This document shows, piece by piece, positions 7,452 to 7,572 of a DNA stretch of 40,301 bases. Origin of the DNA: a virus. The position numbers and the translations under genes are program-made. Location of the stretch: the UHGV virus genome UHGV-0127505; one strand, 5' to 3'. Below the pieces are notes generated by a model. It made no database searches. It was not told where the DNA came from and saw only the letters and a list, made by a program, of their open reading frames with translations. Every line of letters begins with the position of its first letter. Positions within the stretch are counted from its first letter, which is position 1.

Positions 7452-7482
7452 AAAACCCGGCACGGTGGCCGGGTCATGATGC
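7452..7482 (-). terminator. Rho-independent terminator ending the cI / SIR2-gene transcription unit (t_imm-equivalent)
   Basis: Perfect hairpin CCCGGC-cacggt-GCCGGG (7456-7474) followed on the minus strand by TTTTCTTTTG. Confidence 0.7.
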
Positions 7483-7572
7483 TTATTTCTTACTTTGAAT
7501 GAGCTTAATTAGTTTGTTCTTTTCTTCCGTGTTAAGTTTTCTGACATTAGATACTGTATTTTTATCTTTCAT
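7483..7572 (-). CDS. 29-aa lysine-rich small ORF immediately downstream of the SIR2-like gene
   Basis: ATG at 7572 preceded by GAGGAGAG Shine-Dalgarno at good spacing; MKDKNTVSNVRKLNTEEKNKLIKLIQSKK; terminator follows directly. Confidence 0.5.
   Translation of the reverse strand: MKDKNTVSNVRKLNTEEKNKLIKLIQSKK

Follow-up and report, generated by a model that had tools for sequence, protein, structure and literature searches.

A conserved microprotein gene follows a prophage-borne SIR2-solenoid gene and may encode its regulatory subunit

The locus described here lies in UHGV virus genome UHGV-0127505, a stretch of 40,301 nucleotides (nt), referred to below as the window, that is a lambdoid prophage. 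Its minus strand carries, in order, a cI-like repressor gene, a gene for a protein with a SIR2 domain followed by a helical solenoid, an open reading frame (ORF) of 29 codons that we call the micro-ORF, an intrinsic terminator, an AT-rich operator/promoter-like region, and the genes for KilR, Gam, Bet and Exo (Table 1). A first-pass annotation of this DNA had reported a Lys-rich 29-aa ORF with a near-consensus Shine-Dalgarno (SD) sequence directly downstream of a SIR2-like gene. Both are present as described, and the upstream gene product is indeed a SIR2_2 protein (PF13289, E = 1.3e-13). A 29-codon ORF is by itself unremarkable in AT-rich DNA, and we consider the micro-ORF to be real because the ORF, its frame, its SD sequence and its position are conserved in diverged relatives.

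Table 1. Features of the SIR2/micro-ORF locus and its flanks in the window
Feature	Position	Strand	Remarks
SIR2-solenoid protein gene, 639 aa	7642..9561	-	ATG at 9561; listed GTG at 9576 adds 5 codons
Micro-ORF (microprotein gene)	7483..7572	-	29 codons + TAA; product MKDKNTVSNVRKLNTEEKNKLIKLIQSKK
SD sequence GAGGAG	7581..7586	-	8 nt 5' of micro-ORF ATG; anti-SD duplex predicted at −9.3 kcal/mol
Spacer, SIR2 stop to micro-ORF start	7573..7641	-	69 nt; unconserved between lineages
Intrinsic terminator	7444..7475	-	stem-loop 7454-7475, T-run 7444-7453
cI-like repressor gene (HTH_3 + Peptidase_S24)	9742..10431	-	upstream of SIR2; context, outside the cassette
OL-side operator-like palindrome GTTGTT-N8-AACAAC	7291..7310		GTTGTTTTATCGTCAACAAC; just past the terminator
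OR-side operator-like palindrome	10476-10494		GTTGTTGACTAAAAACAAC; between cI and a divergent cro-like gene

The window peptide is highly charged, with nine lysines and one arginine among its 29 residues (31% Lys, net charge +6), and has no hydrophobic stretch. Its predicted layout starts with a basic N-terminal segment, followed by a helix N-cap and then a single amphipathic helix (KLNTEEKNKLIKLI). The consensus across lineages reads MK-x-K ... K-[LI]-[ST]-x-E-E-[KS]-K-x-L-x-x-L-[LI], conserved positions including L13, L21, L24 and I25, and the net charge of the peptide lies between +2 and +9 in all of them. The signals for its translation are much better than those of the gene before it. In the window, pairing with the 16S anti-SD sequence is predicted at −9.3 kcal/mol for the micro-ORF versus −2.2 kcal/mol for the SIR2 start. 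Across the 15 lineages scored, the micro-ORF SD ranges from −6.4 to −10.6 kcal/mol and the start is usually AUG-AAA, whereas the SIR2 SD is weak or absent in 14 (+0.5 to −4.5 kcal/mol), the exception being L151 at −7.1 kcal/mol; the micro-ORF SD outscores that of SIR2 in all 15 lineages, and is much stronger in 14. Read from its SD and AUG-AAA start, the micro-ORF is probably translated efficiently, and the asymmetry leads us to expect the peptide in large excess over the SIR2 enzyme. No alignment can be made between the spacers of the window, Klebsiella and Enterobacter loci, and the SD sequence and ORF are nevertheless retained.

The association with SIR2 was surveyed in DNA around SIR2 relatives drawn from assemblies, one-genome-per-species contigs, IMG/VR and metagenomes (224 loci at survey); scanning contigs with the single SIR2 protein returned no relatives, and an alignment-based scan found them. 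A profile built from the peptides and searched against six-frame stop-to-stop segments of the 224 loci gave 56 matches in 55 loci, all on the SIR2 strand, with starts from 13 nt upstream to 138 nt downstream of the SIR2 stop and with no match elsewhere in the six-frame translations. The distribution follows SIR2 architecture. Among the 59 loci with a SIR2 protein of 595-680 aa, 55 carry a homologous ORF of 26-33 aa, three a variant ORF in the same position (a divergent 21-22-aa ORF of the MKDKIYYVP type) and one no such ORF at all. The profile matched none of the 18 loci with a SIR2 protein of 540-594 aa, which come from other phyla, and none of the 64 with one of 840-930 aa, i.e., 0 of the 82 loci with other SIR2 architectures carry the micro-ORF. 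The 59 loci represent 35 distinct SIR2 proteins and 22 distinct intact peptides.

Every enterobacterial relative that we inspected has a short Lys-rich ORF with an SD sequence right after SIR2. Examples, with SIR2 identity to the window protein in parentheses, are Klebsiella (82%; peptide MKDKNAATNVKKLDLEEKKKLIEQIESKK), Enterobacter (73%; MKEKNVKSTVKKLNQDEKQQLLQLLDNKSKN), a lambda-like metagenomic phage (60%; MKDKIATKPVVKLSPEERKELMLLVCSLNRG), a second E. coli lineage (54%; MKQKNINNQSRISEESKKKIKEMLKKQ), Citrobacter (55%; MKQKSQHASSKISEESKKKLKELLKKQ) and K. aerogenes (52%; MKPKNHNTNSKISEESKKKLKDMLKK), to which Vibrio adds three peptides (45-50%; MKEKKVVNRKKLTQEQKARLKRLAKL, MNPIKQTTSKPRSAKQTSQLLKELKAQLKK and MNTLKRNVKNSKSTEQKKVLLERLKANLKSSN). 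Co-conservation with the SIR2-like gene, which the first-pass annotation had proposed as a check, thus extends down to 45% SIR2 identity, in unrelated backbones and at unrelated insertion sites, and comes with a coding pattern. Peptide groups track SIR2 subclades, and the sequence types differ markedly between subclades. The 120 listed SIR2 homologues include no natural SIR2-peptide fusion. A single origin of the micro-ORF, at the base of the gamma-proteobacterial clade, is probable.

The way in which the micro-ORF has diverged is that of a protein-coding gene. We compared 17 micro-ORF pairs. In the more diverged ones, the proportion of synonymous differences (pS) is 0.68-1.15, which is saturated, versus 0.18-0.42 for non-synonymous differences (pN; 0.03-0.42 overall). 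The ratio of non-synonymous to synonymous rates (dN/dS) is 0.04-0.33 in 10 of the 17 pairs and 0 in one (three synonymous and no non-synonymous changes), while saturation of dS makes it impossible to compute in six. Changes fall predominantly at the third codon position (7/4/15 at positions 1/2/3 between the window and Klebsiella), and in two Vibrio loci whose SIR2 proteins are 88.6% identical the micro-ORFs differ at six codons, with six synonymous and no non-synonymous differences. We also considered an RNA element in place of a coding gene and ruled it out, as Rfam has no RNA family at the micro-ORF (only a sub-threshold chance match) and RNAalifold predicted zero conserved pairs. In two Vibrio lineages the start of the micro-ORF overlaps the end of SIR2, once as ATGA and once by 14 nt, which suggests translational coupling of the two genes. 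On these comparative sequence grounds, the micro-ORF behaves as a translated gene whose product is under purifying selection, and not as an RNA element or a chance frame. That it is a real coding gene functionally tied to SIR2 is very probable, and the first-pass suggestion of a small partner or regulator of the SIR2-like protein is supported by both its retention with SIR2 and the coding substitution pattern.

The two genes travel together through very different surroundings. The cassette has as its neighbour a lambda-type cI in the window and in L097, and a short HTH repressor in the Rac/RecE-type prophages found in Klebsiella and Enterobacter. Another E. coli prophage has it behind the lambda P replication gene, and Citrobacter and K. 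aerogenes have it behind dinI. In a 186-like Vibrio phage in GenBank it adjoins CI, and the 30-aa ORF is annotated there as a hypothetical protein. Prophage backbone, spacer and terminator sequence all vary between loci. In each setting there is a terminator after the micro-ORF, different in sequence and roughly 4-50 nt past the stop, and the micro-ORF is always the last gene before it. The presence of a separate terminator in each setting indicates that the mobile unit is SIR2 plus the micro-ORF, which in the window uses the terminator of the backbone. These comparisons show that SIR2 and the micro-ORF have been co-inherited across Enterobacterales and Vibrionales in different phage backbones. 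The idea that the ORF is just a terminator-proximal leader fits poorly with this picture, since nothing but the terminator lies downstream and the distance from stop to terminator varies. Another candidate that we rejected is that the micro-ORF is the stump of a truncated Argonaute gene, because the ORF and its own stop are conserved across backbones with different downstream DNA.

Two of these settings contain additional genes. In Vibrio phage 10N.286.45.B12_PE001 (L228, PQ189330), positions 1187-4263 hold a CI repressor, a PH-domain protein, SIR2, the 30-aa ORF, a terminator and an integrase, which looks like the same cargo logic at work next to the repressor of an unrelated phage family, here with a PH-domain gene added. 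In the Citrobacter/K. aerogenes lineages, an ORF of 87-91 aa after dinI lies directly upstream of SIR2 (L091-L093, at 2736-3011 in L091; L094, at 2706-2969); the Citrobacter ORF runs 11 nt past the SIR2 start, and other lineages have no such ORF.

The small gene has largely escaped annotation. A peptide identical to that of the window is listed as a 'hypothetical protein' on 133 contigs, while RefSeq lacks the micro-ORF and, in 26 complete E. coli genomes, annotates the homologous stretch with a 'SIR2 family protein' only. Searches of the window peptide against Pfam, NCBIfam, PHROGs and PADLOC gave no family above threshold. The same was true of the 19 aligned peptides against Pfam and of their profile against PDB sequences, with no match above threshold and no family common to more than one member. 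A tblastn search of the window peptide against a phage collection gave no match, and a full-text literature search returned no description of the micro-ORF or of a SIR2-TPR plus microprotein system.

The SIR2-solenoid protein belongs to phrog_23427 (E = 4.5e-255), a PHROGs family of unknown function, and a protein search returned ~1,800 homologues. Its AlphaFold2 model (mean predicted local distance difference test [pLDDT] score of 71) comprises a SIR2 domain (residues ~1-280), a long helical linker, a TPR-like alpha-solenoid (~376-574, pLDDT 80-92) and a disordered acidic tail (582-639). The motifs TTNFD (N122) and KLHGD (H165) are invariant in 27 homologues, and we equate them with the catalytic Asn and His residues known from ThsA and DSR2. 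Judging by these intact catalytic-type motifs, the protein is likely to be enzymatically active. A role in defence is a candidate function for this lineage, pointed to by the domain type, the same motifs and the location in a prophage cargo slot. The best PADLOC matches are partial matches to Aga_SIR2-PNTD models, which are Argonaute-associated (E = 1e-67 to 1e-42); a partial match to the PDC-S65 candidate (residues 25-327, E = 1.3e-30) is weaker. The nearest solved SIR2 domains are those of SPARSA SIR2-APAZ proteins (PDB 8jl0/8in8; E = 2e-30 by sequence and 3e-11 by Foldseek), followed by DSR2.

Like SPARSA, in which a SIR2-APAZ protein works with a short prokaryotic Argonaute (MID-PIWI), the cassette is a two-gene system that pairs a SIR2 protein with a putative partner, and its SIR2 domain is closest to that of SPARSA by both sequence and structure. 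However, no Argonaute gene stands beside the window SIR2 gene, whose neighbours are the cI-like repressor, the 29-aa ORF, the terminator and KilR, nor is there an Argonaute neighbour at the inspected loci of this SIR2 clade. The structural alignment to SIR2-APAZ covers ~290-300 columns, i.e., the SIR2 domain only, although one PADLOC fusion model aligns to residue 511, and the C-terminal half of the window protein gives TPR-type sequence matches and an all-helical repeat model. DSR2 offers a parallel in architecture, as it also combines an N-terminal SIR2 NADase-type domain with a long helical solenoid and is ranked by Foldseek directly after SPARSA. This likeness is one of architecture only, with a root-mean-square deviation of >20 Å over the full length; no PADLOC DSR model matches, and the SIR2 domain is closer to that of SPARSA. 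DSR2 is moreover a single-gene system whose protein of ~1000 aa comprises SIR2, a MID and a C-terminal solenoid sensor and has phage-encoded regulators, whereas the window protein has 639 aa and a self-encoded small protein. DSR2 is switched by small proteins, as the phage tail tube protein activates it and DSAD1 inhibits it (PMC11263360, PMC10981675).

Type II toxin-antitoxin systems that serve in abortive infection provide a different parallel, since they too are two-gene operons on mobile elements, coupling a potentially lethal enzyme to a much smaller protein with far more efficient translation. Known proteic antitoxins usually have 60-100 aa or more and often bind DNA, whereas the peptide has 21-33 aa and is encoded downstream of the enzyme gene. 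By this analogy, a toxin-antitoxin logic for SIR2 and the peptide is plausible. What appears to be new is the microprotein, a previously unrecognised component of a SIR2-based candidate defence system.

Our main reading is that the micro-ORF is the conserved second gene of a cassette made of a SIR2-solenoid NADase and a microprotein that acts as a small over-produced regulatory subunit, to which we give a probability of about 0.6. The cassette would be transcribed in the lysogen with the repressor gene or just after it, with transcripts ending at the backbone terminator. The microprotein, consisting of a basic tail and an amphipathic helix, would then bind the SIR2-solenoid protein as a stoichiometrically over-produced regulatory subunit; direct binding to SIR2 as its mode of action is somewhat better than an even bet. 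In the version that we prefer, it would serve, like an antitoxin, as a safety catch that restrains the NADase as long as the lysogen is uninfected, and upon infection the peptide would be lost, displaced or titrated, releasing depletion of NAD+ (oxidized nicotinamide adenine dinucleotide) and thereby aborting the infection. We favour this version because the enzyme is potentially lethal, because the translation asymmetry resembles that of toxin-antitoxin systems, and because DSR2 is switched by small protein ligands. Even so, that the peptide is an inhibitor rather than an activator is a tentative proposal, at roughly one chance in three. More specific, and a shade less likely still, is the possibility that the 26-33-aa peptide is a self-encoded, over-produced and short-lived micro-antitoxin, so that infection might be sensed by peptide loss—through host shut-off, proteolysis or titration by a phage product—and not only by ligand binding to the solenoid. 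Such a micro-antitoxin would, to our knowledge, be among the shortest proteic antitoxins.

Several observations weigh against this reading. Because the loci share ancestry and are in part redundant, the association reflects long retention of one acquisition and not repeated independent events, and SIR2 relatives in phyla outside the gamma-proteobacteria have no micro-ORF. The net charge of the peptide does not correlate with that of the SIR2 acidic tail (r = −0.23), and the peptide is kept at some loci without the tail, which led us to reject electrostatic pairing of the basic peptide with the tail as a mechanism and to keep it as a weak idea only. In one Klebsiella locus (L006, GCA_046119615.1, 5990-6055), an A8-to-A7 frameshift cuts the peptide to 21 aa beside an intact SIR2 gene; if real, it argues against an essential antitoxin. 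The A7 allele, identified by comparison with L005, L007 and L008, could be a homopolymer sequencing error or slippage-prone on/off variation, and A7-A9 runs recur at the same place in Citrobacter, K. aerogenes, L110 and L149. Finally, translation of the peptide, its binding to SIR2 and defence by this SIR2 family are points that we infer, the family phrog_23427 having no assigned function and the PADLOC matches being partial. A converse allele exists in K. pneumoniae (L227, GCA_050537185.1, ~2234-4132), where a single-base change turns Tyr66 of SIR2 into a stop in eight contigs while the micro-ORF is intact, in a locus otherwise 99.95% identical to L005. We discarded this pseudogene pattern as evidence, since the lineage with a dead SIR2 and an intact peptide and the assembly with the reverse are single recent events and uninformative.

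The main rival to an inhibitor is an activator or adaptor: the microprotein could be a positive cofactor needed for SIR2 activation, oligomerisation or trigger recognition, for instance as a basic peptide bridging the solenoid to nucleic acid or a phage protein. We regard this as unlikely, at slightly better than one chance in five. It draws on the same co-conservation and coding evidence as a regulatory subunit of any kind, the uniformly positive charge of the peptides is in keeping with it, the SPARSA proteins with the closest SIR2 domains function only with a partner protein, and the frameshift tolerated in L006 fits an activator more easily than an antitoxin. On the other hand, a cofactor would have no obvious need for a large translational excess over SIR2, the relatives in other phyla do without one, and the peptide shows no nucleic-acid-binding motifs or family matches.

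Alternatively, the peptide could be an independent small effector, directed at the host or at phages and unconnected with SIR2 biochemistry, that hitch-hikes in the cassette. Unrelated genes are frequently brought together in prophage cargo cassettes, other E. coli lambdoids have another gene pair in this slot, and peptide types such as MKDKIYYVP differ markedly from one subclade to the next. However, the peptide never occurs without SIR2 in the 224 loci or the profile search, its groups follow the SIR2 subclades and the Vibrio overlaps (ATGA or 14 nt) suggest translational coupling with SIR2, which makes this explanation improbable. Slightly less probable again is that only the act of translation matters, protecting the 3' end of the SIR2 mRNA or modulating the terminator, with an irrelevant peptide sequence. 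In the window 9 nt separate the stop from the terminator stem, the distance in Klebsiella is similar and the strong SD is conserved, but purifying selection acts at the amino-acid level while synonymous sites are saturated, the stop-to-hairpin distance ranges over roughly 4-50 nt and no RNA structure is conserved. As for a chance, unexpressed frame in AT-rich cargo, short ORFs are indeed common at ~35% G+C and RefSeq does not annotate this one; the conservation of frame, start, SD and length over 22 intact peptides and 35 SIR2 proteins, together with the codon-position substitution pattern, effectively refutes it.

SIR2 NADases are a major effector class in bacterial immunity, and we know how their silencing and triggering are achieved for only a few of them, namely DSR2, Thoeris, SPARSA, SIR2-HerA and Avs5. 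The prophage-borne SIR2 lineage described here, found in E. coli, Klebsiella, Enterobacter, Citrobacter and Vibrio, as a whole comes with a conserved second gene of 21-33 codons that RefSeq annotation, Pfam, PHROGs and PADLOC all overlook, which illustrates that catalogues of defence systems compiled from annotated proteins can leave out components of very small size. With SIR2 cloned by itself, one would be working with an incomplete system, and a false negative or toxicity could result. The pair also offers a testable case of a microprotein controlling an immune effector, and if the micro-antitoxin idea were true, the cassette would represent a new two-component class of SIR2 abortive-infection systems, with a second gene that standard annotation has missed.

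The remaining observations concern the terminator and the prophage setting. The GC hairpin with a T-run reported by the first-pass annotation directly after the micro-ORF, on the same strand, was confirmed by both a terminator scan and folding. The hairpin, GACCCGGC-CACCGU-GCCGGGUU at 7475..7454 followed by UUCUUUUG, begins 9 nt past the TAA stop, has eight pairs of which six are G-C, and is the top terminator-like site of the region; its RNA folds at −17.2 kcal/mol (z = −3.5), and none of 200 shuffles folds as well. Identity with thousands of E. coli lambdoid prophages extends through the hairpin and ends at window position 7473. Those prophages have a different gene pair in the same slot. 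The terminator therefore belongs to the backbone, where it stands in the place of the terminator that follows rexB in lambda, and SIR2 and the micro-ORF are cargo. This cargo has ~26-41% G+C, versus ~50% in the flanking recombination genes. A search of 5,426 complete E. coli genomes gave no match to it, but draft and metagenome assemblies do contain it. Between cI and the terminator, closely related lambdoid backbones carry another pair, a hypothetical protein of ~353-357 aa overlapping a 125-aa ASCH-domain protein (L224 3782-5210 and L225 3777-5193; E. coli lambdoid phage IdasGreatGrand and strain PSS-16). The slot therefore appears to be a cargo hotspot.

The motif GTTGTT-N(3-10)-AACAAC has two matches in 40 kb, where 0.02 are expected by chance. 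The two palindromes (Table 1) are candidate repressor operators, and their placement fits that of OR and OL bracketing an immunity region. As the OR-side palindrome falls inside the listed 251-aa cI ORF, the true cI start is probably the ATG at 10431 (MKTTLSERL...). The first-pass comparison with rexAB, in which the micro-ORF occupies the position of rexB, stands as a statement about map position: the order is OR-like palindrome, cI, SIR2, micro-ORF, terminator and OL-like palindrome, and as in lambda two cargo genes lie on the repressor strand between the repressor and the terminator preceding OL/pL, with the same lysogen expression logic and a smaller second gene. It fails as a statement of homology. 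RexA is not a SIR2 protein, whereas the first gene here encodes a SIR2_2 protein (PF13289), and no Rex family is found among the Pfam, PADLOC, NCBIfam and PHROG matches; the second product is a charged peptide of 29 aa, whereas RexB is a polytopic membrane protein of 144 aa. Beyond the terminator, between the OL/pL-like region and kilR, the window has no N-type antiterminator gene and ~430 nt (7010-7440) without a convincing ORF. A 136-aa ORF without a family match (6794-7204) overlaps kilR, and the related locus L097 does carry an N-peptide gene.

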